Below are positions 5,199-35,847 of a DNA stretch of 37,418 nucleotides, one piece after another (the stretch's first letter is position 1; each line of letters starts with the position of its first letter). The DNA comes from Candidatus Scatosoma sp. (GTDB taxonomy: Bacteria; Bacillota; Clostridia; Christensenellales; Borkfalkiaceae). A program made the position numbers and the translations under genes. The DNA lies in assembly GCA_045605705.1 (NCBI GenBank), contig JAZUQM010000051.1, positions 1 through 37,418 on the forward strand, in the 5' to 3' direction. The notes below the pieces were generated by a model. The model was not told the DNA's origin. It did no database searches and saw only the letters and a program-made list of their open reading frames with translations.

Positions 5199-5827
5199 AC
5201 GGCGTACTTTGCCGAAAGCTTAATCAAGAACGAACACAAATCATTGACGGCGCGAAGATCTCCCGTCGTCCACCCCTCCTTTTGTAAATATAAAGAGAAG
5301 GCGTTTTCCAACTCGTTCGCTTGTAAGCGTTCGGCAGGGGATAACGGAGCTTCTTTCAATTTTTTCAAAAGCGCACTTGCGTAGGCAAGCTTTAAGGGCG
5401 GTTCTTCCCCGCTCTCCTCCTCAGGTTTCAAAACGGTATTCAACCTTGTACGGACAAATACGTTTTCTTTATCAGGCAGGGTAAATTGCAATCTCCGCCG
5501 TAATTCCGCGCGCTTTGCTCTGCGCTCGGCAACCCGTTTTTTTATTCCCAATAAACCCGATAAAAAAAGATAGGTACAGCCTGTAAAAACAAACAATACC
5601 CCGCCCCCGATCAGTCTTGTAACCGAGCTTTCTATCAGTGCGGCAAGCGCGATGAACGCAGCGCCCAAAACAAGCGCGGACATAGCGGCAAAACAGCCTG
5701 CATTGTCCAAAAAATACCCAAGCAGCACCCCCAGCAGTAGCGTACCTGCGGCAATCAAAGTAACGACAAGCAATATCTTCTCCTCAGCATAAACGCCGTA
5801 TAACCACTCAAAAATCCACATATACAA
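5195..5827 (-). CDS. Membrane protein, unknown function (N-terminal TM helices, charged C-terminal domain)
   Basis: SD GGAGG lies 9 nt upstream of the ATG. The protein has three or four hydrophobic segments followed by an RRAKRAELRRR linker. Confidence 0.6.
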   Translation of the reverse strand: MYMWIFEWLYGVYAEEKILLVVTLIAAGTLLLGVLLGYFLDNAGCFAAMSALVLGAAFIALAALIESSVTRLIGGGVLFVFTGCTYLFLSGLLGIKKRVAERRAKRAELRRRLQFTLPDKENVFVRTRLNTVLKPEEESGEEPPLKLAYASALLKKLKEAPLSPAERLQANELENAFSLYLQKEGWTTGDLRAVNDLCSFLIKLSAKYAV

Positions 5828-5828
5828 A

Positions 5829-5860
5829 GCCTCCTTTTAGGTTTTTCCCAAAAAGGAGGC
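5829..5860 (-). terminator. Hairpin after addA; its 3' arm contains the SD of the next gene
   Basis: GCCTCCTTTT...AAAAGGAGGC forms a 10-bp stem. On the minus strand it is followed by TTTGTATATG, the start of 5195..5827. Confidence 0.4.
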
Positions 5861-5900
5861 TCGCATTTTTTCATATTTTCGAAAATTTTGTCAAAGCGCG

Positions 5901-8900
5901 TCAAAACTTGAAATCCACTTGAAATCCGTAGTAGAGGCTGACAATGGAACAACGGATTTTCTCCAAGGGGATACGCATAATTTTGGAAACCGCTCTTCGA
6001 TACAAATCCAGCTGCGGTGCGTAGTGCTTTTTAAGATATTCCGCGCCCCCGCGGGAGAATTTATAATCGATGATTTGCACTTCGCCGTCCTCACCCACGG
6101 CAAGAAGATCTATCGCGCCTTGGAAGATAATCTCCTCTTGATTTTCCCCAAGCCGCACATTATCCACGCCCTCTTTCTTTGCATAGGTGTCCGCAATCGG
6201 CAAGGATACAAGAAATTTTTGCTCTTTATACAGCCGCTTGCCTTGCAAGCTTCTAAACACGGGGTTAGACAAAATTTCCACAAGCTTATCTTCATTCATC
6301 TCGCCCATGTCCCCGCCGTTTTGCCTTTTGATAAGCTCTTGCAAAAGCGGTTTTTCTATCAAGTTCCCCTCGCCGCCATATAGCAATGAGAAATCGAATT
6401 TTTCCAAAAAAGCATGGTAGGCAATACCCGCCTCTTTGCTCGTCGCGCCCTTTTTATCGTACTCCTCATCCTCGTCAAAGAAGGTCTGCATATCGTCTTC
6501 CTCGCCGTAAACAGGTTTTGCAAGGAGTTGCGTCGCCGAGCTTTTTGCCGGCAAGTTTTCCAACCCCTCAAAGGAATATTCCCACAAAAACGCACGCATG
6601 ATTTCTCTTGCCAACTCCTCATCGGGACGGAATACAAGCGCAGTGCGCTCCTGCTTAGGGATTTCCGCCATACTATCCTCCACGACGTATTCCTGCCAAA
6701 CGGAGAAATCGGTAAATTCGGCAAAAGAGCGGGCAAACCTTACGTCCGGCATCGCCGTAGGGCCTTCGAAAACCATATGCAAGCCGTACTTCGCGCGGGT
6801 GAGCGCTACGTAATACAAATTCAAACCGTCCGCGCGGGAGCTTTCCGCCTCGTTTTGCTCGTGCAAACGCCGAAGAAGGGTGGTGGACTTGGTCATGCTA
6901 CCCTCGTCGAAGGCGTAAGGCGCAAGCCCGTACTTTTCCTCCACCTCCACTTCATCTCTATCAATACCGCGGAAAGGCGCGCTTAGATTATCCAAAATGA
7001 CGATAGGGTATTCCAATCCTTTGGACGAATGCATGGTAAGCACCTTGACCGAATCCTCGCCGCCGTTTTCGCTATATTCAATCTTATAACCCAAATCGCG
7101 CAATCTATCCAAAAAGGCATGCACACAAAGGGGCTCGGGCGAGCCTGCCTCTTCGATAAAACGGCGTATACGCTTGACCGCAGCCACACCGTTTGTGCGT
7201 GCAAGCAGGTCGCTTTCCATTCTCGTTTGCGAAACGATACGGGTAAGCAGCTCTCCCACGTCCAACACACGGGAAAGCACACGAAGTTCTTCAAAATAAG
7301 TGTAAAACTTTTTCAGCTTATGTGCCAAGAAGTCCTTTTGCTCTGCGGCGTAACGTTTGCATGCCGTTCTAAAAAACTTCTCGTCCTTATACGCCAAACG
7401 AATATCCGTCAAATCGTCCGCCGTCAAATTTCCTACTGCGGAAAGAAGGACGCTGCAAAGCGCAATATCCTGCGCCCCGTTATCGATCAGTGAAAGCAAG
7501 TCAATCAAGGCTTTGATTTCTGTAAACTCGCAAATATTTACAGCAGCCGCGGCATTGACGGGTATCCCCTCCGCCGCAAGCGATTCTACAGTGCGGGCAA
7601 TTTGCCCCTGTTTTTTGCGCGAAAGCACGGCGATATCCGCATACCTCACGGCGCGGTATTCCCCCGTGTCGGGGTCGAAAAACTGATTATGCCGTTCGTC
7701 CTCGATAATCGCGCGAATGATTTTTGCAAGCAAGCTTTCCTCTGCCGCCCGTTTTCCCGCCTGCGCCTTTACCGAGTACACCCCGCGCTTTTCGGCGGGC
7801 TTTTTTTCTTCCTTGCCGACGAAGTGTATACTTACCTTACCGCTATTCGGCTCATACCTGCCCCCCTTCTCCATGCGGGAATCGCGGGCATAGTCCACCG
7901 AACAGGTCTTGGGCGTCATGGCCAAGGAAAACTGTGCATTGACCGCGTCGAGCACCTTATCCGCGCTCCTGAAATTGCGGGTCATAAACAAGTTTTGTCC
8001 ATCGCCGTTTTCAAACTCTTGCTGTTTTTCCACGAAGAAGCGGGACTTGCTCCCTCTAAACCCGTAAATCGCCTGTTTGACGTCGCCGACAAGGAACAGG
8101 TTCTCCCCGCTCAAACGGGAAATTAACTCCTCTTGCACGGGATTGACGTCTTGATACTCGTCCACAAACACGTAGCGGTATTTTTGCCTGAGCTCTTGTA
8201 CAACCTCCTCGTTACTCAAAAGGGCAAGCGCTTTATGCTCCAAGTCATTATAATCAAGCACCCCTCTATCCGCTTTGAGCGCCTCGTATTTATCATCAAA
8301 GCGGAGCAGGTATTCGCCAAGCGCCTCCGCCGTTTCTCCTGAGCGCAGGAAATTTGCAAGCTCTTCCTCCCGCGTTTTGGTTTTGGAAAGCTCGTCGTCG
8401 TAAATCTTGACGATGCGCCCTTTCAAAAACGCCAAACGCTGAATATGCAATAGCTTTTCCGCGCTGTCCTTTTTGGACGAACGGTTAACGCTAAATTTCG
8501 GCTTTTGCACGGCGCAAGCGGAAAAATAGTCCTTTGCGCTTACCGTTTGCTCTAAAAGGTCAATAAGCTCCTCGCAAAGGGCAAGCTGACCGCTTCCCTC
8601 AAAGCCAAGAAAGTACGCGCGTTCGTCCTCGACAAGTTCGCGATAATATACGCACTTTTCGTCCAACTTTTTCTTCAAGTCAGCGCAAATCTTATCAAAG
8701 GTATCCTCGTCGTAACCTTTGCAATTTTTCAAATACTCCCGATAATCGGCACGGTTTCTCAAATGCTCGTACGCGGTTAGAAAAAGCTTGCGCAAGGTCT
8801 TGTCGCTTTTCTTTCTCCAATACACGGAAAGAAGATGATAAAACTTTTCCTCTTTTTGCTCGTAGCCTTCTTCAAACAGCTCGTCCAAAGCCGCATTTTT

Positions 8901-19204: not shown

Positions 19205-19244
19205 AAAAATAGGCGATGCCCTACTTGGGCATCGCCTATTTTTT
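19205..19244. terminator. Bidirectional terminator abutting the tRNA-Leu 3' end
   Basis: AAAAA, the hairpin TAGGCGATGCC-CTACTTG-GGCATCGCCTA, then TTTTT. Confidence 0.8.
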
Positions 19245-19344: not shown

Positions 19345-20052
19345 TTATGCAATCGGCTGAATTTCCGTCTTTTGTAAAGTATTGTCCTTGCGTTCGATAC
19401 ACCAGGCTTTTCCGCCGCTCACTACGCTGCCGACGACTTTTCCGTCTTCTATCACCAGCGCTGCGTTATCTTCTATCCCGTAAGCACAGTCGTAATTATA
19501 ACACACTATTTTGTCAAAGTCAAGCATTCTCGCGTTATAATGGGGAGAAATTACGCCTTTTTTCCAACCCAAACCTTGGAACATAGAGTACTTTTCACCC
19601 GTGTCGCCATTCACCGTAGACGAGTCTGTATAAATATCCGTAAACCAACAAATTGCGCCTGCCGAAAGCCCTGCAAGGATAACTCCACGCTCGTATGCAT
19701 CCTGAATTAACGGCAAGAAGCCCGACTTTTTCCAGTGCTCCATCATGAACACCGTATCGCCCCCGCCAACGTAGATAACGTCCGCTTTTTCAAACTTTGC
19801 GCGCATTTTTTCTAAGTCAACGTCCTTATACACCGACAGCGCGACGTCCGTTTTGATATTAAATATCCCCGTATATACCTTATGAAAGGTATTATAATAC
19901 GGCATATAATCATGACTAGCAGTAGGAATGAACAGAGCGTTGGCTCTATTCTCCCCTGCGCGCGCTTTGGCAAGCCCTGCGATATATTCGTCTATTTTAA
20001 GCGTGGTTCTTTCGCGGAGCTCTCCCCCGCCGATGGCGATAATCCGTTTCAT
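19345..20052 (-). CDS. Peptidase S51 family (dipeptidase E-like)
   Basis: N-terminus IIAIGGG, YVGGGDT, and the nucleophile elbow GLSAGA. Confidence 0.8.
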   Translation of the reverse strand: MKRIIAIGGGELRERTTLKIDEYIAGLAKARAGENRANALFIPTASHDYMPYYNTFHKVYTGIFNIKTDVALSVYKDVDLEKMRAKFEKADVIYVGGGDTVFMMEHWKKSGFLPLIQDAYERGVILAGLSAGAICWFTDIYTDSSTVNGDTGEKYSMFQGLGWKKGVISPHYNARMLDFDKIVCYNYDCAYGIEDNAALVIEDGKVVGSVVSGGKAWCIERKDNTLQKTEIQPIA

Positions 20053-20534
20053 TTACCTAACCTTTCGAGTTCGACTCTCGTCAGGTTACAATACTTCTCT
20101 TCAATCGCTTTGATTTTTGCAATACGTCTATCGTGGCGTTCCCCGCCCTCGTATTCACAGGTCAAGAACGCGTTTACGATTTCTTCCATCATGCCTACGC
20201 CTACTACCTTTTCCCCGAACGCAATCATATTGGCGTCGTTATGATAGCGGGTATATTTTGCACAATAGACGTCGTGGCAATGCGCGCAGCGAATCCCCGG
20301 CACTTTATTCGCCACGATAGAAACGCCGATACCCGACGAACAAACGACGATACCGCGCTGACAATCCCCGCGCGCAACCGCCTCCGCTGCCTGCACGGCA
20401 AAATCGGGATAGTCGCAGGAATCAAAGGTATTCGTACCAAAATCCGCTACCTCGTGTCCGTTCTTTTCCAAATACGCAATCAGCGCTTTCTTCAAATTCA
20501 GCCCGCCATGGTCGCAAGCAACTGCAATTTTCAT
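20049..20534 (-). CDS. rpiB: Ribose-5-phosphate isomerase B, with about a 12-aa tail read from the junction element
   Basis: Motifs MKIAVACDHGG and CSSGIGVSI are present. The C-terminal CNLTRVELERLGK is encoded by the repeat. The stop TGA overlaps the next ATG (ATGA). Confidence 0.9.
   Translation of the reverse strand: MKIAVACDHGGLNLKKALIAYLEKNGHEVADFGTNTFDSCDYPDFAVQAAEAVARGDCQRGIVVCSSGIGVSIVANKVPGIRCAHCHDVYCAKYTRYHNDANMIAFGEKVVGVGMMEEIVNAFLTCEYEGGERHDRRIAKIKAIEEKYCNLTRVELERLGK
20058..20088 (+). repeat. Junction palindrome element, copy 1
   Basis: TAACCTTTCGAGTTCGACTCTCGTCAGGTTA lies between rpiB and the S51 peptidase gene. Confidence 0.9.
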
Positions 20535-21073
20535 AAACTTTCTCCTATTTCTTTTTTCTTTCTTGGCGTAGGCGGAAGTGCATACGCCTTCAAATCAAGT
20601 TTTTCAATCAACGCGGACATGCCCCCCTCTAACAGCGTATAAACACGGCGGTATTCCTCCACGTCTTTGCCGTAAGGGTCGGGGATATTACAGCCCGCAA
20701 GCTCTTCAAACGAATACACGTTGTTTTCTATCTCTTCTGCGCCTGTTTTTCGCAAAACGTTCCAACGCATATCCATAAGATACTCTCTATGCCTTTCGGT
20801 CATGCACACGAATGCAAAGCCCTCTTTCAAGACCTTCTCGCTCATGGGCGTAGCGGAAAACTTATCTACCGTGAATCCGTTTTCTAAAAGCACCTGCGCG
20901 GATTTGGGATTTATCGTATCCCCTTTTTTTGCGCTAATCCCCACCGAGCACACCTTAAACCCGCGGAGCTTTGCTTTTTTCAGCGCCTTTTTAAGTAAAT
21001 ATTCCGCCATGGGAGAACGGCAGGTATTACCCGTGCAAACGAATACGATTTTTTTTAATTTAGTACCGCTCAT
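20531..21073 (-). CDS. Low-molecular-weight protein phosphatase (YwlE-like Tyr/Arg phosphatase)
   Basis: P-loop VCTGNTCRSPMAE. It sits between tsaC and rpiB, as in the B. subtilis ywlC-ywlE-ywlF arrangement. Confidence 0.88.
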   Translation of the reverse strand: MSGTKLKKIVFVCTGNTCRSPMAEYLLKKALKKAKLRGFKVCSVGISAKKGDTINPKSAQVLLENGFTVDKFSATPMSEKVLKEGFAFVCMTERHREYLMDMRWNVLRKTGAEEIENNVYSFEELAGCNIPDPYGKDVEEYRRVYTLLEGGMSALIEKLDLKAYALPPTPRKKKEIGESL

Positions 21074-21098
21074 CTCGTACCTGCCCCCCTCTTTCGTG

Positions 21099-22112
21099 TT
21101 AGTGTTTGATATCTGCGGACGTGCATGCCTTTGTCAAGCGATTGAGCACACCCGTCATTTTCCCGTCCTGTTTTTTCGGCGTTACGGCGATAAGCGTATC
21201 ACAAACCTTTTCCGCCTCGCGCAGCAAACCGTATAGCCTTGCCGCCATTTCCTCTTCCGTTTTGCCAAGGTTAAAAAGGAGAACGTCTTCCTTTTCAAAA
21301 CAGGTCAGCCTTTCTTCTTCGCAAAGCACCGCTACGCGGTTGCCTGCCTCTTTTTCCTTTTTGCACTGCGCCATTGCCTCGTCCACGCCTTCATACAGCG
21401 CCGTTTTACAACGGGGTGCGTAGTGTTTATACAATACCCCGGGGCTTTTTACCTTCTCACCTTGGGTTAGGGTCGGGGTATATTCCTCGCAAGCGCCGAC
21501 CACCTTCGCTATCATTTCCTTAGTAATAAGCCCGGGGCGCAGGATAACGGGGATTTCGCCCGTAACGTCGCACACCGTACTTTCTATCCCCCCTTCGCAA
21601 GCCCCGCCGTCTAAGATAAGCGGGATTTTTCCCTCAAAGTCCTCAAAGACGTGAAGTGCGGATGTCGGGCTGACGTGCTTAGACAGGTTTGCGCTGGGCG
21701 CGACGATAGGAATATCCACCGCCCGCAAAAAGGCTTGCGCGCCCTCGTGCGCGGGGATTCGTACGGCAAGGGTATTGAGCCCGCAGGAAACGCGGGGGCT
21801 TACCTTGCCCGTCGAGGGATACACCAAGGTCAAAGGCCCGGGCAAAAAGGCGTCCCGAAGCGCCTTGGCATACGGCGGGTCATAATCGATGATTTTCGTT
21901 AAGTCGTAATCCTTATGCACGTGCGCGATAAGCGGATTGTCGGCAGGTCTGCCCTTGACCGCGAAGATTTTTTCCACCGCGTTATCGTCAAAAGCGTTTC
22001 CGCCTAAGCCGTACACCGTTTCCGTCGGTATCGCCACCACACCGCCGTCAAATATGATATTTTTTGCCTCCAACAAGCTGTCGGGGGTGATTCGTTTGAT
22101 TTGAGTTTCCAT
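21099..22112 (-). CDS. tsaC: L-threonylcarbamoyladenylate synthase, long Sua5/YwlC form
   Basis: The YrdC-domain motifs PTETVYGLG, KGRP..NPLI and SANLS are present, plus a C-terminal Sua5 domain. Confidence 0.9.
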   Translation of the reverse strand: METQIKRITPDSLLEAKNIIFDGGVVAIPTETVYGLGGNAFDDNAVEKIFAVKGRPADNPLIAHVHKDYDLTKIIDYDPPYAKALRDAFLPGPLTLVYPSTGKVSPRVSCGLNTLAVRIPAHEGAQAFLRAVDIPIVAPSANLSKHVSPTSALHVFEDFEGKIPLILDGGACEGGIESTVCDVTGEIPVILRPGLITKEMIAKVVGACEEYTPTLTQGEKVKSPGVLYKHYAPRCKTALYEGVDEAMAQCKKEKEAGNRVAVLCEEERLTCFEKEDVLLFNLGKTEEEMAARLYGLLREAEKVCDTLIAVTPKKQDGKMTGVLNRLTKACTSADIKH

Positions 22113-22255
22113 AATAAGATACAGTACGAGGCTGTAAAGTGGGTAGATGCGAGCAGTTCAAGGAAGGTGCGGATTTGCCGACGGGCGCGTACATAGGCGT
22201 ACGTAACCAAGGCAAAAAGCAAGCCTGACGAAGAAATGCGACGCATATACACGCT

Positions 22256-23764
22256 TTACTCAAAAGGTAATTCGTCGTCCGTTGCCCTGTTTAACTCGCT
22301 CTTTCTTGCAGGAGGGGGTTCGGGCGGGGTGTAATCGTCCTCGGGAGCTTCGTACTCCTCATCCTCGTCCAAGCCGTGCGAAGCACGGGTATATTCAGGC
22401 GGTTCGTCGTCGCGATTTTGCTCGTCCACGTCCACGAACTTGGTACATTCGCCGATGAACTTAAGCGCAACGCGGCCTTGCTCACCACCTCTGTGCTTGG
22501 CGATAATGAGTTCGGCTGCGCCCTTGACAATCTTACCCGAAGCAAGCTCTTCCTGCGTTGCAATCGCCTCAGGACGGCTGATGAACATAACGATATCCGC
22601 GTCTTGCTCGATTGCGCCCGATTCACGAAGGTCGGAAAGCTGAGGTTCTTTGGATTGAATACGTCTAAGCTGCGAAAGCGCGATAACAGGCACGCCAAGC
22701 TCCTTTGCCATGATTTTCAAATCACGGGTAATGGACGCGATTTCCTGTTGTCTGTTTTCGCTGCCCGCCATGGAAGAATCCCCGTTGGACATAAGCTGGA
22801 TATAGTCGATCATAATTATATCCACCCCCCCTGCCGTCGTTTTTAAGCGGCGGCATTTGGAAAGGATTTCCGCAGGCGTTACGCGCGAGGAATCGTCAAT
22901 ATAGATATTGCTCTTTTTTAGCTGATCTGCCGCAAGCATAAGCTTTTTCCATTCTTTTGCGCTCAAACTACCGTCCAAAGCCTTTTGCATGCTCACGTTT
23001 GCATACGAGCATATCAATCTTTGTACGATTTCCGAGCGAGGCATTTCCAGCGAAAATACGGCGCAGGTCTTATTCGAGTGCAAAGCCGCATGTTCAACGA
23101 TATTCATGGCAAGCGAGGTTTTACCCATACCGGGACGAGCCGCAAGGACGATGAGAGCCCCCGGCTGCAAGCCGTGGGTCATTTTATCCAAGCGCTTATA
23201 TCCCGTAGGAATACCCTTAAAGGCATTCGGGTCAGACTGCAAAAGCTCGAACTTATGCAGCACATCCCCGATCACGTCGCCGTCGTTCATGGGCAGGAGC
23301 GCAGAACGCTCGGACTGCTTAGAGATATCGTAAATCGTCTTTTCCGCAAAGGCAAGCGAGGCTTGCTCGTCCGTGCCCTTCATGGACGTTTCGATAATTT
23401 TTCTTGACGCACGAATTAAGCGGCGGTTGATACTGTCGCGGGAAATAATATCGTAATAGGACTTATAATTCGCCGCAGACGGAGTGATTTGCGTAAGCTC
23501 GGTCAAATACACGATACCGCCCGCTTTTTCAAGCGTGCTTTCGCTCTCAAGCTCGTCCGCTACGGTAACGAGGTCAATGGGTTTACGCGCGTTAAATACC
23601 CGCTGCATTGCGCGCAGGATATACTTGTGCGACTCTTGATAAAAGTCCTCTTCACTCAGTTTATCTACGATATCCACCGCGATTTCATTGTCGATGAGCA
23701 TACACCCAAGCAGCGCCATTTCGGCGTCGCGGTTATAGGGCATCGTATTCATTTCGTTTGCCAT
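22256..23764 (-). CDS. dnaB: Replicative DNA helicase DnaB with about a 55-aa acidic/proline-rich C-terminal extension
   Basis: The N-terminal domain has AE.ALLG. Walker A GARPGMGKTS, Walker B IMIDYIQL and the arginine-finger region SQLRR are present. AGGAG lies 7 nt upstream of the ATG. Confidence 0.93.
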   Translation of the reverse strand: MANEMNTMPYNRDAEMALLGCMLIDNEIAVDIVDKLSEEDFYQESHKYILRAMQRVFNARKPIDLVTVADELESESTLEKAGGIVYLTELTQITPSAANYKSYYDIISRDSINRRLIRASRKIIETSMKGTDEQASLAFAEKTIYDISKQSERSALLPMNDGDVIGDVLHKFELLQSDPNAFKGIPTGYKRLDKMTHGLQPGALIVLAARPGMGKTSLAMNIVEHAALHSNKTCAVFSLEMPRSEIVQRLICSYANVSMQKALDGSLSAKEWKKLMLAADQLKKSNIYIDDSSRVTPAEILSKCRRLKTTAGGVDIIMIDYIQLMSNGDSSMAGSENRQQEIASITRDLKIMAKELGVPVIALSQLRRIQSKEPQLSDLRESGAIEQDADIVMFISRPEAIATQEELASGKIVKGAAELIIAKHRGGEQGRVALKFIGECTKFVDVDEQNRDDEPPEYTRASHGLDEDEEYEAPEDDYTPPEPPPARKSELNRATDDELPFE

Positions 23765-23775
23765 AAGATTGCTCC

Positions 23776-23807
23776 TAACCTGACGAGAGTCGAACTCGCA
23801 AGCCTTA
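23776..23807 (-). repeat. Junction palindrome element, copy 2 (inverted orientation, one arm degenerate)
   Basis: The plus strand reads TAACCTGACGAGAGTCGAACTCG (23 nt, a perfect reverse complement of 24031-24053), then CAAGCCTTA. Confidence 0.85.
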
Positions 23808-24023
23808 AAAGTTTATTTTTCGCATATTTCGTCAAATGCGTTCTTGTAGTATATCGATACGACTGCGCCCACCTTCGCCAAAATCTGCTGAAAAATATTT
23901 CTTTTAAGGTGCTGCGCAGTTTTTACAAGCAAAAAATGAGATGCAGACAAGGCGGGCTTTACAGGCAATACCCAAGTATTGTCAAAAAGCCCAACGAAGT
24001 ATCCAGCCATTTTTTGCCGTTAA

Positions 24024-24053
24024 AACCTTTCGAGTTCGACTCTCGTCAGGTTA
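24024..24053 (+). repeat. Junction palindrome element, copy 3
   Basis: AACCTTTCGAGTTCGACTCTCGTCAGGTTA. Its last three bases, 24051-24053, are the pepF stop codon (TAA on the minus strand). Confidence 0.9.
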
Positions 24054-25832
24054 ATCAAGTAAAGTTTTGAATTCCTCCAAGGTAGAACGGAATTCTTCCA
24101 TAGCCGCCTCGAAAGGCGCGGTGGTGGTTAAATCCACACCTGCCCCCTTCAAAATGGATACGGGGTCGGTGCAGCCGCCCGAAGAAAGGAAACGGAAATA
24201 ATCGTCCACTGCGGGCTTGCCTTCGGTTAAAATACGCTTTACAATGCTCATTGCAGAAATGATACCCGTTGCGTATTTATACACGTAGAACGCAGTATAG
24301 AAATGGGGAATTCTTGCCCATTCGTACGCGATTTCGGGGTCATGAATTAAGCCCTCGCCGTAATATTGCTTGTTGAGGTTGTAATACACTTCGTTCAAGC
24401 ACTCCTTGGTAAGCGCCTCGCCTGCTTCGGCTTTTGCATGGGCGATTTGTTCAAATTCCGCAAACTGCGTTTGACGGAACATGGTGGAACGAATGGTATC
24501 CATGTAATAGTTGAGCAGGTATTTTTTGAGGTTCTTATCCTCCGTTTTCTTATACAAGTGCTTTAAGAGGAGCACTTCGTTTACCGTACTTGCGATTTCC
24601 GCAAGGAAGATGGTGTAATTCGATTTATTATACTCTTGCGCCTCGTTGGATTTATAGGTATGGAGAGCGTGCCCCATTTCGTGCGCAACCGTGAAGATAT
24701 CATTGGTCGTTTGCTGATAGTTCAAAAGCACGTAAGGGTGTACGTCGTAAATACCCGTGGAGTATGCGCCGCTGCGCTTGCCTTCGTTTTCGCAAACGTC
24801 AATCCAGCCTTCCTCTTTTGCCTTTCTCAACAGATTTTGATAATCCTCGCCAAGGGGCGCAAGACCTTCGATAACAAGCTCGTACGCCTCTTCAAAGGGC
24901 ATTTTGATTTCCGCGTCCTCAACAAGGGGAACGAACAGGTCGTACATATGTTGTTCCTTTACCCCTCTTGCCTTTTTGCGAAGAGAGATATAATCGTGCA
25001 TAACGGGCAATGCGCCGTGTACCGCGTTTACGAGATTGTTGTAAACGACGGGCTCTACGTCCTCGCCTGCCATTGCCATAGCAAGACAGCTATCATAGTT
25101 TCTTACCGTCTTATAGAATACGTTCTTTTTAACGTTACCGTGGTAGGTTTGCGCAATCGCGTCAATGAGCTTGATATACGCCTCGTAATATTTTTTGAAC
25201 CATTCCTCTCTTTCCGCGTCCGTACCCGTATGCAGCACCACGCCGTACATACCGTGGCTCATTTGCACTTCTTCGCCGTTAAAGCTTGCTTTGGGCAGGT
25301 TGAGGTTTGCGTTATCGAGCATAGAGAATACCCCTTGGAACCCACGCATAACGTCCCCGCCGAGGGTAAGCAGTCTTTCTTCTGCCTCGCTAAGTACGTG
25401 TGCCTTGGATTTTGCGATTTTACGCAAGGAATATTCGTAAGGTGCAAACTCGGGGTCGTCGATAAAGCTTTGCAAAAGCTTTTCGTCCAAAGCAGTAAGC
25501 TCGGGATCAACAAACGCAAACTGTGCGAACACCTTAGCAAATAAAGCCCCTACCTTTGCGTTTGCCGAGGTGTATTTGGAGATACGTACGTCCTCGTCGT
25601 GGCGCATATGCGCGTAGAGGTATACCCTTTCCAAACGACGGGAAATTTCGTCGATGGTACGGAAACATTTAAGTAAGGTTTCACGGTTGTGAAGATTGCC
25701 CTTGAACGCGGAAAAGTCGCAATTTGCGTAGTCCGCTTCCGCACTGTTAAACGCCTCTTCCCAAGCCTCGTCCGTAGGGAAGATATCGTTAATTTTCCAT
25801 TTTAAGTTTTCTGAAATTTCATTTCTTTCCAT
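24051..25832 (-). CDS. pepF: Oligoendopeptidase F (M3B metallopeptidase)
   Basis: Zinc motif HEMGH, and the length and overall pattern typical of PepF. Confidence 0.9.
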   Translation of the reverse strand: MERNEISENLKWKINDIFPTDEAWEEAFNSAEADYANCDFSAFKGNLHNRETLLKCFRTIDEISRRLERVYLYAHMRHDEDVRISKYTSANAKVGALFAKVFAQFAFVDPELTALDEKLLQSFIDDPEFAPYEYSLRKIAKSKAHVLSEAEERLLTLGGDVMRGFQGVFSMLDNANLNLPKASFNGEEVQMSHGMYGVVLHTGTDAEREEWFKKYYEAYIKLIDAIAQTYHGNVKKNVFYKTVRNYDSCLAMAMAGEDVEPVVYNNLVNAVHGALPVMHDYISLRKKARGVKEQHMYDLFVPLVEDAEIKMPFEEAYELVIEGLAPLGEDYQNLLRKAKEEGWIDVCENEGKRSGAYSTGIYDVHPYVLLNYQQTTNDIFTVAHEMGHALHTYKSNEAQEYNKSNYTIFLAEIASTVNEVLLLKHLYKKTEDKNLKKYLLNYYMDTIRSTMFRQTQFAEFEQIAHAKAEAGEALTKECLNEVYYNLNKQYYGEGLIHDPEIAYEWARIPHFYTAFYVYKYATGIISAMSIVKRILTEGKPAVDDYFRFLSSGGCTDPVSILKGAGVDLTTTAPFEAAMEEFRSTLEEFKTLLD

Positions 25833-25863
25833 ATCGAGATAGTCTCCTAAATATTTTTTAGAT

Positions 25864-26059
25864 GAAAGTGAAGTTTATCTTGGATAAGAGAAGTTGCGGC
25901 TATGCCGCAGTGAAGTTTTTTTGCCTCGTAAAAAGGTTATGGCTGTTATTAATATTTCCATAACTTGCCCCAAAGGGACAAACTTCACTTTCCGCAAAGC
26001 GGAAAACTTAACTTGCCGTTAAGCAAACTTATCTTTTGCCCAAAGGGCAAAAACTTCAC
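25864..26059. repeat. Hairpin-interleaved short-repeat array B (core GTGAAGTTT direct, then inverted)
   Basis: Direct cores lie at 25868-25876, 25888-25895 (GAGAAGTT) and 25910-25918. Inverted AAACTT cores lie at 25980-25988, 26004-26014, 26025-26033 and 26051-26059. Interleaved hairpins lie at 25875-25887, 25895-25909, 25936-25964, 25967-25979, 25991-26003, 26007-26023 and 26036-26050. A 13-nt perfect long-range complement joins 25864-25876 and 25980-25992. Confidence 0.7.
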
Positions 26060-26062
26060 GCT

Positions 26063-27418
26063 TTAATTCTTAAAGCTATGAATAGGGGCAGGAATAGTCC
26101 CCCCTCTATTGATAAGGCGCGAGCTGTCGCACTCGTTTACGGGCATAATAGGCGCACGCCCCAAAAGTCCGCCGAAGCTTACCTCGTCGCCGACCTTTTT
26201 ACCGGGTGCAGGGATAATACGCACAGCCGTCGTTTTGTTGTTAATCATACCGATTGCCGCCTCGTCCGCGATCATTGCCGCAATCGTAGTTGCAGGGGTA
26301 TCGCCGGGGATGGCAATCATATCCAAGCCCACGCTGCATACGCAGGTCATTGCCTCTAATTTATCGAGCGTGATTTTGCCTGCCTCCGCTGCCTTAATCA
26401 TGCCGATATCCTCGGATACGGGAATGAACGCGCCCGAAAGCCCGCCAACCCGCGAGGACGCCATAACGCCGCCCTTTTTCACCGCGTCGTTGAGCATAGC
26501 AAGCGCCGCCGTCGTACCGTGTCCGCCGACCGTTTCTATGCCGAGCTCTTCCAAGATTTGCGCAACCGAATCTCTTATAGCAGGTGTGGGCGCAAGGGAC
26601 AAATCGACAATACCGAACTGCGCGTTCAAGCGCTTTGCCGCCTCCTTGGCAACAAGCTGACCTGCGCGGGTAATTTTGAACGCCGTACGCTTAATCATTT
26701 CCGCAGCCTCGTCCAAGTTAGCGTCGGGAATTTGTTCAAGCGCGTGCTTGACAACGCCGGGGCCGGAAACGCCTACGTTGATTACGGTATCCGCCTCGCC
26801 TACGCCGTGGAATGCACCCGCCATGAACGGATTGTCCTCCACCGCATTACAAAAGGCAACCAGCTTCGCCGCGCCGATACCGTCTTTATCTTTCGTCAAA
26901 AACGCCGCCTCTTTGAAGACCTCGCCAAGCATTTTGACCGCTTCCATGTTGATACCCGATTTACTTGAACCTACGTTGACGGAAGAGCAAAGTCTATTCG
27001 TCGTAGCAAGTACTTCGGGAATGGTGCGAATGAACACGCGCTCGTAATCCGCCGTCGCTTTATGTACAAGCGCGGAATACCCGCCCAAAAAGTCGATACC
27101 GAGCGTTTCCGCCGCCCTATCCAGCGCCTTACCTACAAGCGGAGCTTTTTCAGGGAATGCCGCCGTAATCAAGCTGACAGGGGTAACCGAAACGCGCTTA
27201 TTGACGATGGGAATACCGTATTCCCCTGCCAAATCCGCAGCGGTTTTTACGATATTCTCCGCTTTTTTACAAACGAGGTCGTACACCTTTGCCGCCGTTT
27301 CCTCCGCTGTGTCGCGGATACAACCAAGCAAAGATATCCCCATGGTAATCGTGCGGATATCAAGGTGTTCCTTTTCCACCATTGCAATCGTTTCTAAAAC
27401 GTCTTTATTTGTGAACAT
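26063..27418 (-). CDS. UPF0210/DUF711 family protein (PFL-like)
   Basis: The N-terminus has [11 protein letters not shown]. At about 450 aa, it is paired with an upstream ACT-domain UPF0237 gene, which is the usual arrangement. Confidence 0.85.
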
Positions 27419-27428
27419 CTTGTACCTC

Positions 27429-27698
27429 TTAAATGCTATGCATGGCGCTGAACACGTCCTCGTGCTGCATGTAAATTGCCATGCCGATTTGCTTGCCCAT
27501 TTCTTGGCATTCTTTTGCTAAAACGGAAAGTTCCTCTTGGGTTTCACTCAAATCCACAATCATAATCATCGCGAAATATTCTCCCATAATCGTTTGCGAA
27601 ATATCCTCGATATTCGCGCCCTTGCTCGATAAAAACGCGCTGACCTTTGCGATAATGCCTTTATTGTCCTTACCCGTTACCGTAACGACTGCTTTCAT
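27429..27698 (-). CDS. ACT domain protein (UPF0237 family)
   Basis: [20 protein letters not shown]... I chose the start at M10, with a GGAGGAG SD overlapping the upstream stop. Confidence 0.85.
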
Positions 27699-27699
27699 A

Positions 27700-28254
27700 T
27701 TACTCCTCCTCTTCGACCTCTTCAAACTCGAGAGCCTGTTTTTCTAAAATTGTATATTGCAAAATCATGTTGCTTTGCGTAATATAGTGCACTAAATCCC
27801 CGCTTTCAAAGGGCGGGAGAGGTTTTTCCTCGTCCCAATACGCCTCACGCTCTAACCATTCCTGCTTTTTCTTGCTCCAGGTTTCAAACACACAACCTAA
27901 AACGTCTATATTATCCTTTTGCAGGGCTTTCCGCTCAAATTCGTAAAAATAGTTGCGTTCTTCGTTTTTCAATCCCTCCGAAAGGTAGGTAAGCATTTTG
28001 AAATATTTCTTACATCTCCCCCCCTTGATCGCCAAATAAGGAAAGGAAAACCCGATATATACCGCCGACCCAATCCATACGCAAAGCTTAGGTAAAATTT
28101 GCAAGGGGTGGGCGTAGGGCAGGGAGATATAATAGCAAAGCCAAGCGATACAATATACCGCATATACCGCCGTTATTCCCCAAAATACCCCGTAAATTTT
28201 ATTTTTTTGCTTATAAACCGCCAAATAATCAGCGTCGTTATAAACGTTTGTCAT
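27700..28254 (-). CDS. Membrane protein, unknown function (2-3 TM segments plus an acidic C-terminus)
   Basis: I chose the start at MTNVYN so the gene does not overlap degV. It has hydrophobic N-terminal segments and an EEVEEEE tail. Confidence 0.6.
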   Translation of the reverse strand: MTNVYNDADYLAVYKQKNKIYGVFWGITAVYAVYCIAWLCYYISLPYAHPLQILPKLCVWIGSAVYIGFSFPYLAIKGGRCKKYFKMLTYLSEGLKNEERNYFYEFERKALQKDNIDVLGCVFETWSKKKQEWLEREAYWDEEKPLPPFESGDLVHYITQSNMILQYTILEKQALEFEEVEEEE

Positions 28255-28268
28255 ATAACTCTCCGTGC

Positions 28269-29114
28269 TTATTTTTCGTATGCAAACAAGACGCCCAGCG
28301 TTCCCTTTCCGCAATGGCTGGTGATGATAGAGCCTGCCACCGTTTCAATAATTTCGTCAAAGTCAAACACCTCTTTCACCTGTGCCTTCGCCGCGTCCAC
28401 AAGCTCTTGATCGGCAGAAGAATGGGTGATAAAACAACGGCTCTTATCGTAGTTAGGATACATTTCCTTCAAATCGTTAACGTACTGCTTGATAAGGAAA
28501 GACATCTTCCCTTTGTATTTTTTACCGGGAACAAGCTGACCGTCTTCCATGTAGATAAGCGGGTGAATTTTGAACATCGCCGCCACCGTTTTCACCATAC
28601 CCGAAACACGACCGCCTTTATGTAAGTAGTCGAGATTGTCAGGTACGAACGAGGTATTAACGCGTTCTCTCAATTCTTCGATAGCCGCCACGATTTCCTC
28701 TGCGGTCTTACCCTCGTCGCGTAAATCGCAAGCCTTCAAAACCAGCAAGCCTTGCCCGGAAGAAAGCGCCTTACTATCGATAACGTGCACCTTCCCGCCA
28801 AAGCTCTCCGCCGCTTGCTTTGCAAAGTTATGCGAACCCGAGCTTTTCGCGGAAATATTGAAGTGGATAAGTTCGTCGCCAAACGCAAGCTGCTCTTTGA
28901 AAAAGTCTTCATAATCGCCGATGCTAGGCGCGCTGGTTTTGGGAAGCTCTTTAGTGCGTTCTACAAACGAGAAAATATCCTCGGGCGTAATATCCACGCC
29001 GTCGTGATAAGCGTTTGCCCCCAAATTTACCTGCAAGGATAAAATCCCTACCTTTCTTTCCTCAACCAAATGGTTCAAATCACAGGTGCTGTCCGAAGTA
29101 ATTCTAATTGCCAT
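28269..29114 (-). CDS. DegV family fatty-acid-binding protein
   Basis: The N-terminus is MAIRITSDSTCDL. At about 280 aa, it shows the typical DegV pattern. Confidence 0.88.
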   Translation of the reverse strand: MAIRITSDSTCDLNHLVEERKVGILSLQVNLGANAYHDGVDITPEDIFSFVERTKELPKTSAPSIGDYEDFFKEQLAFGDELIHFNISAKSSGSHNFAKQAAESFGGKVHVIDSKALSSGQGLLVLKACDLRDEGKTAEEIVAAIEELRERVNTSFVPDNLDYLHKGGRVSGMVKTVAAMFKIHPLIYMEDGQLVPGKKYKGKMSFLIKQYVNDLKEMYPNYDKSRCFITHSSADQELVDAAKAQVKEVFDFDEIIETVAGSIITSHCGKGTLGVLFAYEK

Positions 29115-29125
29115 AATGTTTCTCC

Positions 29126-29785
29126 TTATTTTCCAATGAAAAATATTCTTTCTAAAATATCTTTATATTCATAAGCCCAATCGGGCAAATATCCAACCAC
29201 GTCGCTTGATTTATACAAGCAATCCTTCAAATGCGAGCCGTTGGGATATTCGTGATAACGGCTGTCCTTGCTGTCGCAGCGGTTGTCGCCAAGAAAGAAA
29301 ATCTCCCCCTCGCCTACCGTGTACGTGTATCCGTTAAAGCTGTAACCGTCTTTATCACTGTAATACGCATAAGGCTCGTCCACCGGCTCAAATTCCTGCG
29401 TACCTTTATAGCAAATTTCAAGCCGTCCGTTTTCAAAGCGGACTTGATCTCCTTCTTTGGCGATCAAACGCTTAATCAATAGCCCGTCTTTGATGCCCTG
29501 GCATTCCTCATATCCGCTCACGTCTACCACGATAATCGTACCGTAGTCAAGGTCCTCTGCATTTTTTATCCGCCGAACCAAGAGCTTATCACCGTGCTCT
29601 AAGGTGTTGACCATGGACGAACCGTCCACCACTACGCCCCAAATATTCGCCGTCCACCATACCCGAAAAACGCAAAGCAATAGCGCAACGCAAAGTAAAA
29701 CGGTATAAAAAATAAAATTCGTCCGCCCTTCCTTATAGCCGTAGCGCGCCTCGTATAATTCGCTGTTTTTCAGGTTTTGTTCCAT
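29126..29785 (-). CDS. lepB: Signal peptidase I
   Basis: Motifs GSSM..TL, KRLIAKEGD and GDNRCDSKDSR, plus an N-terminal TM helix. I chose the start at MEQNLK; the ORF-track extension upstream is read from the junction element. Confidence 0.88.
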   Translation of the reverse strand: MEQNLKNSELYEARYGYKEGRTNFIFYTVLLCVALLLCVFRVWWTANIWGVVVDGSSMVNTLEHGDKLLVRRIKNAEDLDYGTIIVVDVSGYEECQGIKDGLLIKRLIAKEGDQVRFENGRLEICYKGTQEFEPVDEPYAYYSDKDGYSFNGYTYTVGEGEIFFLGDNRCDSKDSRYHEYPNGSHLKDCLYKSSDVVGYLPDWAYEYKDILERIFFIGK

Positions 29786-29797
29786 TGATTCCGTCCT

Positions 29798-29828
29798 TAA
29801 CCTTTCGAGTTTGACTCTCGTCAAGTTA
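29798..29828 (+). repeat. Junction palindrome element, copy 4
   Basis: TAACCTTTCGAGTTTGACTCTCGTCAAGTTA. Bases 29826-29828 are the stop codon (TAA) of the upstream hydrolase-like gene. Confidence 0.9.
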
Positions 29829-31526
29829 TAACCACAAGATATTGGTGATGGCAAATTCCTTTTCTTCTTCCGCGCAATCGAACACGAGCGCACTGCCGCT
29901 GAAGAAATTATCCAAAGGCGCGCCGTAGGTTTCCCCTTTGAAATCCGCCGCCTTTAAGATGACGCGCTTCCATTTCCCGCCGCCCTTGATTTCGACCTCG
30001 CAGGAATAACGCTCCTCTTCCGTTTCCACGTCCGCAACCTCAATCGTTACAAGCAAGGTTTGCGTTTCTTTAGAGTATGCGTCAAATTCCAAAAGTGCAT
30101 TTTCCTCGGGCACGTAGCGAGGAGAACTGATTTTATAGGTACGGATACCTCCCACCGAGTACGCGCCGTTCACGTCGCCGTAGCCCACGGACATCTTGGG
30201 TATCGCTTCCCTTTCCAAAAAAATCCCGCCGATGGAATAATCCTCGTATTCCGCCACACCGAAGCAGTCCATTTCTTTACCGGAAAAGAGTCTGCGGCTC
30301 TTTACCACCCCCGTTTCCGGCCGAGTCAAGCGCTTGGACGTGATTTTGGACATCACGCGGAATCCGTTAATATACTTGGCATATGCGTAAACGAACACGG
30401 CAGTCGCCCCCTCAAAGGGTTTAACGACGTGGCTAAGCGTACCGTTTTTCACCGTTCTGCCTTGTACCTTATGCACGCACCGCCATTCGCGATAGGTCGA
30501 ACGGGTCTTTACGTCCGCCTCCGCATAGAAGATACCTGCTTCCTCCAAGAGCCCTTCCTTATCGCATTCCACCACAACTTCTACCCCTCCGTCAGCGTCC
30601 TTCAACGCCACGTTAAGGGTGTCGGGAATATAAATTTCTCTTCCCTTCAAGTTCTTTTCCAAGAATAAATCCATATCCAACAACGCGTTCGGCCCGATAC
30701 AGCCTCCGCTGTCGGGAGAATATACAAGCGCGTTGCCGTCGTCGTTGCCGATTCTAGAATACGTGTCGTACGCCCTGTCGCAATCAAACCGCTTATCTCT
30801 AAGCGCACAAAGCATCAGCACGGGGCACTTAACGTAAGGCGCGTAGGATTGCGCCTCTACCGCCGCGATATAGCGGTGGCGGTTATCACTTAAATGGTGT
30901 GCGACGTTTGCGCCGAATTTCGCGATATTAAGGAAGGAATACCACCCCGCCGCATTGATGGGCACGCCGCATTTGATATCGGGCGAAAGCATGGTTTGCC
31001 ACGCAATTTCTCCGCCCGTGCGCACCCCCACCACGCCGATATTGCCGATATCAGGCAGGGACTTAAGGTATTTTACTGAATAGAGCGCAACGTACGTCCA
31101 TTCCACCCAGCAGGTTTTATCAGAGTCTACGTCCATAAGGGAATGTAGCCCCTCGGCTCTCTCATAGTTACCTTGCGAAAGCGATTCGGGATACACGGTA
31201 CGCATGACCGTACCGTCGTCCGTACTCATTTTTCCTGAATAATCGGGTACGAGCACGGCATAGCCTCTATCGACGAAATAGTCCATAAGCTCGGTATCAG
31301 GGGTTTTTCCCGCGTCAGGCAAAAGCAGTACGGCAGGCGTTTTTCCCGGTGTATTCGGGCGGGCAAAGCGCGCGTAAATGCGGACGCTGCCGTCCGTTCC
31401 CTCGTGCCCAGAATAAGAAACGTGGAGATAAGTTCTATCGCCCTTATCCTCCTCGCCCCAAACACTGGTACAAAGCGGCGTATTCAAATTGTATTTTTTC
31501 CAAAGGGAAATTGCGCTAACAATCAT
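29826..31526 (-). CDS. Alpha/beta-hydrolase-fold-like protein with an extra C-terminal domain, function unknown
   Basis: The region PAVLLLPD...YAVLVPDYSG...GVVGVRTGG...CPVLML resembles esterase/dienelactone-hydrolase folds. The start is uncertain. I prefer M50 (31526) because the longer ORF would run through the divergent promoter at 31599-31627. Confidence 0.6.
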   Translation of the reverse strand: MIVSAISLWKKYNLNTPLCTSVWGEEDKGDRTYLHVSYSGHEGTDGSVRIYARFARPNTPGKTPAVLLLPDAGKTPDTELMDYFVDRGYAVLVPDYSGKMSTDDGTVMRTVYPESLSQGNYERAEGLHSLMDVDSDKTCWVEWTYVALYSVKYLKSLPDIGNIGVVGVRTGGEIAWQTMLSPDIKCGVPINAAGWYSFLNIAKFGANVAHHLSDNRHRYIAAVEAQSYAPYVKCPVLMLCALRDKRFDCDRAYDTYSRIGNDDGNALVYSPDSGGCIGPNALLDMDLFLEKNLKGREIYIPDTLNVALKDADGGVEVVVECDKEGLLEEAGIFYAEADVKTRSTYREWRCVHKVQGRTVKNGTLSHVVKPFEGATAVFVYAYAKYINGFRVMSKITSKRLTRPETGVVKSRRLFSGKEMDCFGVAEYEDYSIGGIFLEREAIPKMSVGYGDVNGAYSVGGIRTYKISSPRYVPEENALLEFDAYSKETQTLLVTIEVADVETEEERYSCEVEIKGGGKWKRVILKAADFKGETYGAPLDNFFSGSALVFDCAEEEKEFAITNILWL

Positions 31527-31598
31527 AAAGTTCTTCCCGTCCGTTTTATTGCCTTTTACAAATTTTTTATTTTTATCGAGAAAAAACACCAAAACACC

Positions 31599-31627
31599 TT
31601 GCTTTTGTTTTTGAAAAAGGGTATAAT
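31599..31627 (+). promoter_or_regulatory. Sigma-70-type promoter for the DnaD-like gene
   Basis: TTGCTT, a 17-nt spacer, then TATAAT. Confidence 0.55.
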
Positions 31628-31744
31628 GGTCATACTCTCGCCAAAAGAGCAAATTATCTATTCTATTATACACTATTTATTGAAAGAAAGCAAGAAAGTT
31701 TTTAATAAAAGCGTAAATTTTTTACGAAAGGAAGGGTGTGTTTT

Positions 31745-35783: not shown

Positions 35784-35809
35784 CTAATACCTAGAAAAAG
35801 TGCAATTTT

Positions 35810-35847
35810 AATGGCGTAGCGATAAAATCGCTACGCCATTACTTTTT
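35810..35847. terminator. Bidirectional terminator between the convergent bPH and YegP-like genes
   Basis: AATGGCGTAGCGAT-AAA-ATCGCTACGCCATT (14-bp stem) followed by a T-run. Confidence 0.85.

Follow-up and report, generated by a model that had tools for sequence, protein, structure and literature searches.

Palindromes at Clostridia gene junctions as probable parts of a MITE-like repeat family with TA termini

In a minus-strand gene string of an uncultured member of the Clostridia, Candidatus Scatosoma sp., a 31-nt palindrome recurs at places where one gene stops and the next is about to start, and the question raised by this locus is whether such a hairpin is a signal designed for gene junctions or has some other origin. 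The stretch analysed, here called the window, is 37,418 nt long (assembly GCA_045605705.1, contig JAZUQM010000051.1, positions 1 to 37,418). The initial annotation had described four such palindromes, each exactly at a junction and each supplying a TAA stop codon together with a Shine-Dalgarno (SD)-like arm. The evidence presented here indicates, with a probability of about 0.78, that the palindromes are parts of a family of non-autonomous mobile DNA in an uncultured ruminant-gut Clostridia lineage, resembling miniature inverted-repeat transposable elements (MITEs). The family is new and narrowly distributed and is of an already known kind of selfish DNA; it is not a purpose-built junction signal.

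The palindromes, their positions and the reversed copy were confirmed as first described. The 31-mer TAACCTTTCGAGTTCGACTCTCGTCAGGTTA is present exactly at 20058-20088 (copy 1), with one mismatch and A as its first base at 24023-24053 (copy 3), and with two mismatches at 29798-29828 (copy 4). Copy 2 has the reversed orientation; its 15-mer core, CGAGTTCGACTCTCG, lies at 23784-23798 within 23 perfectly matching nucleotides (23776-23798). All four copies fall within a single minus-strand gene string. Dinucleotide-preserving shuffles gave no match to the 31-mer and a mean of 0.04 matches to the 15-mer, and the palindrome copies are not expected by chance. The hairpin that had been predicted, with a 6-bp stem, a 2x2 internal loop, a 4-bp stem and a 7-nt loop, is also the minimum free energy (MFE) fold of the 31 nt, at about -9 to -12 kcal/mol. 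What did not hold is the equivalence of the four copies. BLAST comparison with three other loci revealed that copies 2 and 3 and the 215 nt between them form a single 278-bp repeat at 23776-24053, and the window contains one such element and two solo remnants, copies 1 and 4.

The complete unit (23776-24053, minus strand) belongs to what is here termed subfamily A, is non-coding, and occupies the space between the pepF stop codon and the SD sequence of dnaB, with TA at both extremities (24052-24053 and 23776-23777). Its left terminal inverted repeat (TIR; unit nt 1-27, 24027-24053, minus strand) contains copy 3, begins with the TAA that terminates pepF, and forms the 5' strand of a terminal helix, P1. 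The right TIR (unit nt 252-278, 23776-23802, minus strand) contains the reversed copy 2, in a T-loop-like orientation in the mRNA sense, and forms the 3' strand of the same helix; the TIR of this unit is perfect over 23 nt. Alternatively, unit nt 1-27 plus nt 24-31 can form the local 31-nt hairpin. Between the TIRs lie arm A (nt 28-135, 23919-24026, minus strand), a long imperfect hairpin bearing the conserved unpaired blocks ATACYKCGTT and GCCTTGTCT, and then a mini-hairpin (nt 136-144) and arm B (nt 145-251), which together span 23803-23918 on the minus strand and show the highest sequence conservation in the unit (…CAGATTTTGGCGAAGGTGGGCGCAGT…ATACTACAAGAACGCATTTG…). A 65-codon open reading frame (ORF) within the unit, 'orf65' (23813-24010, minus strand), is spurious. 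It has no Pfam match, in-frame stops interrupt it in the copies at loci L050 and L026 (L numbers designate the retrieved loci), its variable sites are spread 13/14/16 over the three codon positions without codon periodicity, and a search of 5.8 billion proteins yielded only six small clusters; a small protein or toxin was rejected on these grounds. No terminator-like or promoter-like site was found within 23650-24150, and no T run follows the hairpin of copy 1 or copy 4, neither of which passes as an intrinsic terminator.

The unit is not confined to this junction. A scan of genome collections with an 18-nt core of the palindrome returned, besides the T arms of tRNA and tmRNA genes, three loci in metagenome-assembled genomes (MAGs) of ruminant-gut 'Clostridia bacterium'. 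The unit was 95% identical at L005:5518-5795 and L050:6587-6864 and partial in L026, with different flanking genes each time. Contigs carrying members of the orf65 clusters gave further units, each exactly 278 bp (L129, L130, L131-133, L138, L139 and L140). Full-length copies at 88-95% identity thus include, apart from those of L005 and L050, L129:457-734, L130:3064-3341, L131:561-838 and L138:39-316. The L129 unit lies upstream of dnaB, that of L130 between genes for prephenate dehydratase and patatin, and that of L138 at the same site as in L005; an uvrA-like gene and others unrelated to these also adjoin the repeat. At least eight distinct junctions carry units across assemblies.

A 20-mer from the interior, and the loci in synteny around homologues of DnaB, brought to light further subfamilies of 275-277 bp in which the interior is common while the ends differ and are nevertheless complementary to each other. 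These are subfamily B (L121:3214-3490, ends TAACCAAGCGAGAACCAGTCGAACG), subfamily C (L135 and L136, ends TAGCCRCTCAAGACCGAATTGARCCAG), subfamily D (L121:6687-6962) and subfamily E (L049), with a sixth type of end in L139. In subfamilies B-E the TIRs measure 23-27 nt, and units start with TA(A/G)CC and finish with GG(Y)TTA. A small internal palindrome at each end is a feature of subfamily A; the ends of B, C and D have no local hairpin. An alignment (A3) of 10 units from four subfamilies shows that a length of 275-278 bp is kept with almost no indels despite about 40% divergence between subfamilies. The 215-nt interior is conserved above the ends, and the conserved blocks, ATACYKCGTT, GCCTTGTCT, GCAGTYGTAT and ATACTACAAGAACGCATTTG, are mostly unpaired or in arm B. 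Subfamilies A, B and D occur together in one MAG, GCA_017503525.1. One unit, L140:140-417, has a left end like that of subfamily A and a right end like that of subfamily C, so that no closing helix can form; it arose either by recombination between subfamilies or as a chimera of metagenome assembly.

The distribution of the family is narrow and differs between relatives. In syntenic relatives whose DnaB is 86-87% identical, an nhmmer profile of the family found no unit in seven loci of ~20 kb (~140 kb in all), with gene order kept, and the spacer between pepF and dnaB in these relatives is 22 nt, or an unrelated 75 nt. In metagenomes the exact 31-mer pattern had no match and the interior 20-mer matched three loci only. 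Rfam does not contain the family, and no member of it turned up in the plasmid, phage and viral collections, where the only viral match (L137) was rejected as a chance match within a phage gene. Three related genomes with DnaB 94% identical have a unit at the same TA before an identical dnaB leader, GGAGCAATCTTATGG. At this TA, subfamily B is found in L121 and subfamily A in the window and in L129, which implies a hot spot or replacement. The gene to the left of the unit in L129 is not pepF, suggesting that the unit was a site of rearrangement or that the assembly is chimeric.

The ends of the elements are revealing of the mode of insertion. All 10 aligned units have TA at both ends, and their left flanks have nothing in common but TA. 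Some units, of different subfamilies, adjoin another unit or a palindromic remnant with a single TA common to both (L139:1-526; L049:1-285 and 5740-6045), as though the terminal TA of an element were favoured in its turn as a target. The clearest case is copy 1 (20058-20088, minus strand), a solo remnant of 27 nt plus a duplicated TA (20087-20088 and 20058-20059). It lies in the 3' end of rpiB (20049-20534, minus strand), whose ORF crosses the entire element; the TAA of the element is out of frame there, and the TGA stop of rpiB overlaps the ATG of the S51 peptidase gene (19345-20052, minus strand). The earlier statements on stop codons and distances stand for copies 3 and 4; copy 1 lies inside a gene. 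The window RpiB has 161 aa and ends in …AIEEKYC-NLTRVELERLGK*; among the best 120 homologues 102 have 150 aa, as do the RpiB proteins of L121-L128, and the commonest tail is AIEEKYCK*. Removal of 29 nt, the element less one TA, yields an RpiB of 150 aa ending in AIEEKYCR*, followed directly by the S51 ATG. Removal of 31 or 27 nt fails to do so, and because only the 29-nt deletion restores the 150-aa protein, copy 1 is read as 27 nt with a TA duplication within the last sense codon. The element-encoded tail of 12 aa (NLTRVELERLGK) takes the place of the usual final K or R and is present in none of the 120 best homologues. Insertion at TA with duplication is demonstrated for copy 1; for full units it would follow from their TA…TA ends and from abutting units with one TA.

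The other two junctions can be reconstructed in the same manner. Without the element and one TA, the boundary between pepF (24051-25832, minus strand) and dnaB (22256-23764, minus strand) would read …CTT GAT TAG GAG CAA TCT T ATG, where a TAG stop overlaps the AGGAG SD. The solo remnant with two substitutions (29798-29828, minus strand) lies between the stop of a gene for a DLH-type hydrolase (29826-31673, minus strand) and the SD of lepB (minus strand, ATG at 29785); here the same removal gives …TTA TAA GGA CGG…, so that both the TAA stop and the AAGGA SD were already present. The predicted element-free junctions are …TGTAGGTAAATG… (rpiB|S51), …GATTAGGAGC… (pepF|dnaB) and …TTATAAGGAC… (hydrolase|lepB). 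It had been correctly noted that the TAA of the element is the stop codon of pepF (24051-24053) and of the hydrolase gene (29826-29828), and that the ATG follows the element by 5 nt for the S51 peptidase and 12 nt for lepB, and follows AGGAG by 7 nt for dnaB. The further claim that the element supplies both stop and SD is for the most part explained by the insertion site. The target TA lay in or beside a stop codon, each TAA stop is composed of this TA and the first A of the element, and the SD sequences (AGGAG, AAGGA, AGG) belong to the host flank past the duplicated TA. Before dnaB this flank spans 23762-23775 (minus strand), where a spacer of 7 nt separates the SD GGAG (23775-23772) from the ATG (23764-23762). 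The full unit has stops in all three frames within 34 nt at its left end, and the upstream ORF also ends inside the element in L050 and in the subfamily D copy of L121, as expected of insertions that can be survived.

Placement of this kind would be expected of an element that duplicates a TA dinucleotide on entry in a genome where insertions within genes are lethal and intergenic spacers are tiny. The survivors would then be those at a TA in or beside a stop codon, just upstream of the next SD, and where the TA was in the last sense codon, as in rpiB, the gene has gained a 12-aa tail encoded by the element. The seemingly designed module of stop codon, hairpin and SD is an artefact of insertion and selection.

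The solo 31-mers are accounted for by a feature of the unit itself. The sequence AGGTT occurs twice in it, at unit nt 26-30 and at nt 273-277, where a foldback of about -100 kcal/mol has its base, a classical substrate for slippage during replication, and deletion between them leaves exactly TAACCTGACGAGAGTCGAACTCGAA-AGGTT-A (unit nt 1-25 + AGGTT + A), the solo 31-mer. Solos would arise by slippage of full units between these repeats. In the nearly precise excision of Tn10 and Tn5, replication slips from one short direct repeat to another at the foot of long inverted repeats. The solos resemble its outcome in that loss of the stretch between two direct repeats of 5 nt, which flank a foldback, would leave a small palindromic scar; in the present case the deletion is putative. 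We infer that the two solos of the window are slippage remnants of full units, not independent elements. Solos elsewhere differ in architecture, being joined tip to tip in L026 and L049, as fits a deletion between CGAG repeats, and of a right-end type in L032 and L117. Such variety is more in keeping with scars left by deletion than with a mobile unit of a defined 31 nt.

A second level of constraint is visible in the fold of the unit. The RNAalifold consensus of alignment A3 consists of the closing helix P1 (nt 1-27 with 252-278), arm A, the mini-hairpin and arm B. Double compensatory changes are present in 51 of 93 pairs, including 18/26 in P1 (helix 1) and, in arm A, 12/19 in helix 2 and 5/7 in helix 3; helices 4-7 make up the mini-hairpin and arm B. 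Covariation is not limited to P1 but extends to the internal arms. Shuffled alignments give 29 such pairs, and sliding the partner by 1-3 positions gives 8-12. Likewise, 95.5% of cells at paired positions are able to pair, a value reached by none of 500 shuffles (81.2%), and sliding the partner by 1-3 lowers it to 36-45%. The two strands are not alike: the mRNA-sense strand has 66 G-U against 14 A-C oppositions, the opposite strand 25 against 23, and the sense strand has the lower MFE in nine of 10 units. Of 11 informative units, at least 10 have the same sense as the genes on either side. GC skew merely tracks gene strand and does not separate replication from transcription orientation. The fold and its asymmetry go beyond what binding of a transposase to TIRs explains, and point to the importance of a folded single strand, either lagging-template single-stranded DNA or a transcript. 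That compensatory changes between subfamilies preserve the fold suggests that propagation requires this folded strand, most likely in one of these two forms. The slight hint of RNA-level constraint first seen in copy 4, where a substitution gives U-G in the mRNA-sense strand and C-A in the other, is in this way extended to the whole family, but is inseparable from a constraint on single-stranded DNA or from strand-biased mutation. Two possible causes of these patterns involve no selection, namely correction of quasi-palindromes with the hairpin as template, and C->T mutation biased towards one strand.

These properties raise the tentative and rather doubtful possibility that the 275-278-nt units form an undescribed class of mobile element that depends on structure, with a folded single strand of DNA or RNA being what is recognised and moved. 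This reading is advanced because of the closing helix that varies while remaining paired, the two covarying arms, the unpaired blocks, the fixed length, the G-U asymmetry and the sense or lagging-template orientation of the units. If true, the enzyme would read a shape and the TA(R)CC tip, not a TIR sequence, comparable to IntI acting on attC or to HUH enzymes acting on hairpins, and the presence of three subfamilies with unrelated ends in one genome would be explained.

Several other explanations were considered. That the 31-nt hairpin is itself mobile, REP-like, through an enzyme of RAYT/Y1 type, with the 278-bp unit as a REPIN- or BIME-like composite, is suggested by three near-identical 31-mers in 10 kb with TA on each flank, by a strand asymmetry that fits single-stranded-DNA transposition, and by the existence of a Y1_Tnp gene in a related genome. 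It is nonetheless unlikely, since subfamilies B, C and D keep the 275-278-bp architecture without the end hairpin, which is therefore not a conserved module; the interior of 215 nt is conserved above the ends; and the heterogeneous solos elsewhere are explained by AGGTT microhomology. No RAYT or other Y1 gene was found within the window, and the Y1_Tnp gene (IS200/IS605-type, L127:20243-20713), which is in an apparent integrated element with DNA methylases and DUF4313/4314, is in a locus with no unit. A quite improbable alternative is that the hairpins and the 278-nt fold are a host-selected cis-acting RNA for processing, stabilising or translationally coupling the polycistron, their spread being secondary. 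The sense orientation of the units, the surplus of G-U in the mRNA-sense strand, the covariation of every long helix and the conserved unpaired blocks would suit such an RNA, and co-transcribed MITEs such as Correia and ERIC do affect mRNA processing and stability (PMC2229807). However, close relatives lack elements at the same junctions, a single site holds units of different subfamilies, copy 1 gives RpiB a changed C-terminus, units abut, and chimeric or decayed copies exist. There is also no terminator-like U tract, promoter-like site or Rfam family, and gene orientation in Firmicutes is confounded with the direction of replication.

Mimicry of a functional RNA, either the enzyme strand of a hammerhead or the minihelix of a tRNA acceptor and T arm, is very unlikely, and both resemblances are probably coincidental. 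In the mRNA sense the palindrome reads UAAC-CUGACGA-GAGUCGAACUC-GAAA-GGUUA, where a short helix is enclosed by an exact CUGANGA…GAAA core, and in the opposite sense it makes a 31-nt minihelix of 7+5+7+5+7 nt with a UUCGACU T-loop. The T arms of tRNA-Gly(ccc), tmRNA, tRNA-Asp and tRNA-Thr genes contain its 18-mer CGAGTTCGACTCTCGTCA (window 20066-20083) unchanged, and ~105 of 120 matches in the genome scan were genuine tRNA or tmRNA T arms. The 18-mer matches a T arm plus the start of the acceptor in many bacteria, including related Clostridia (L004, L007, L008, L016 and others), which may reflect origin or chance. The hammerhead was rejected: no Rfam match appeared at E<=10, no substrate strand or cleavage triplet was found even with circular permutation, no partner for stem I or III was found, C3 is changed to U in the core of copy 4, and GAAA is absent from the variants of L032, L049 and L117. 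A tRNA-like element or att site was rejected as well, with no ARAGORN or Rfam call and an 18-nt T-arm identity confined to subfamily A. Subfamilies B-E have ends of unrelated sequence, and in three of the four copies the strand that reads as a T arm is the one opposite to the mRNA. An operator for a dimeric DNA-binding regulator of the downstream genes, suggested earlier as a means of occluding the SD, is extremely unlikely and found no support. The dyad symmetry and the nearness to ribosome-binding sites would suit it, but the sites are within operons where no promoter was found, one is within the rpiB gene, another two form the termini of a 278-bp repeat that also occurs at unrelated genes, and the arms vary freely between subfamilies while pairing is kept.

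Assignment to a MITE-like family draws on a length below ~400 bp, the lack of a transposase gene or real ORF, the TIRs, the TA duplication, and non-orthologous copies whose presence or absence differs between relatives. Other classes of small repeats fit less well. PATEs have same-orientation subterminal hairpins, no TIRs and no target duplication, and insert 3' of a fixed tetra- or pentanucleotide. An IS200/IS605-derived PATE was rejected, as the ends here are inverted repeats pairing over 23-27 nt, TA is duplicated, and the left flanks share TA alone. Integron attC sites are imperfect palindromes of 55-150 nt with R''(RYYYAAC) and R'(GTTRRRY) boxes, 3' of cassette ORFs in an array beside intI. 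The units were rejected as attC sites: their flanks are housekeeping genes in conserved synteny, they are 278 nt long, AAC/GTT becomes AGC/GCT in subfamilies C and D, and there is no intI in the window. Palindromes and inverted doublets of the REP/REPIN-RAYT type likewise form hairpins with compensatory changes, and REP singlets, interpreted as defunct remnants of the larger unit, coexist with doublets (PMC3116915). The present family differs in having no GTAG or CGTC tag, a conserved 215-nt interior in place of a short spacer, TA duplication and one intragenic copy; with ends of TA(A/G)CC and copy 1 within a gene, membership among REP palindromes was rejected. The initial proposal of a mobile hairpin-bearing repeat that settles at junctions was essentially right in kind, while its assignment to REP/RAYT or IS200/IS605 is not supported, given the TIRs, the TA duplication, the lack of a tag, the intragenic copy and the lack of a Y1 gene in the window.

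Bacterial MITEs are known to have TIRs, 5'-TA-3' termini, RNA stem-loops and in-frame gene fusions (PMC2229807). Nearest in their workings are ERIC, Correia/NEMIS of Neisseria and RUP of Streptococcus pneumoniae, which share TA termini, co-transcribed stem-loops and ORF fusion (PMC2229807). Correia/NEMIS and RUP are moreover small and non-coding, with TIRs of ~24-26 bp and TA duplicated at both termini, and insert in transcribed spacers, where their ends pair as a long stem in the transcript and ORFs are fused or terminated (PMC2229807). They differ in measuring 104-155 bp against 275-278 bp here, whereas the present family has two long covarying arms and unrelated TIRs in one genome with a conserved interior; RUP is linked to IS630-Spn1, and a cognate insertion sequence was not found for the present family. 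Another Firmicute repeat, bcr1 of the Bacillus cereus group, is similarly non-autonomous and non-conserved in distribution, is transcribed, and has a multi-arm 'cruciform-like' fold with compensatory changes (PMC3184786). Unlike the present family, which duplicates TA, bcr1 is ~155 bp long with 5-bp direct repeats, and there is no sequence similarity.

Some observations weigh against the MITE-like assignment. Neither the window nor the fetched loci, nor the phage, plasmid and viral collections, yielded a transposase or an autonomous parent element. Within GCA_017503525.1 the three subfamilies have wholly different terminal repeats, which is awkward for a sequence-specific DDE transposase, and covariation in the internal arms is not expected in a classical MITE. 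The closest relative, at 94% DnaB identity, is not isogenic, the duplication of TA by full units is itself deduced, and unit counts are per retrieved locus across assemblies. Finally, both solos of the window are of the same deletion type and could equally descend from one self-moving 27-nt unit.

In the gene string, read from the right, the hydrolase gene is followed by copy 4, then lepB and DegV … DUF711; pepF is followed by copy 3, 'orf65' and the reversed copy 2; dnaB is followed by Sua5, LMW-PTP, rpiB and copy 1; and the S51 peptidase gene is followed by tRNA-Leu. DnaB has 502 aa, with an acidic, proline-rich C-terminal extension of ~55 aa (…DEPPEYTRASHGLDEDEEYEAPEDDYTPPEPPPARK…) encoded at the 3' end of dnaB (22256-22450); lengths of 499-516 aa are common to the best 120 homologues listed for the clade. 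Two TA-flanked perfect palindromes of 29 and 33 nt (19210-19238 and 35809-35841), with an A run before and a T run after, lie after tRNA-Leu and between convergent genes, respectively. They were rejected as family members and are ordinary bidirectional terminators.

The family bears on the biology and the annotation of these organisms in several respects. It rewrites the 3' ends of genes, as in the tail of RpiB, and creates spurious ORF calls such as orf65. It probably also breaks metagenome assemblies, most copies being on contigs of 0.5-4 kb. Its unusually complete structural covariation, combined with unrelated ends in one genome, is its noteworthy feature, and the covariation makes it a good candidate for the study of how hairpin-rich miniature elements are mobilised in Firmicutes; it is also a possible strain-level marker. 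What appears to be a module of stop codon, hairpin and SD is the leftover of a TA-targeting selfish element in a compact genome, where insertions at junctions are the ones that survive.

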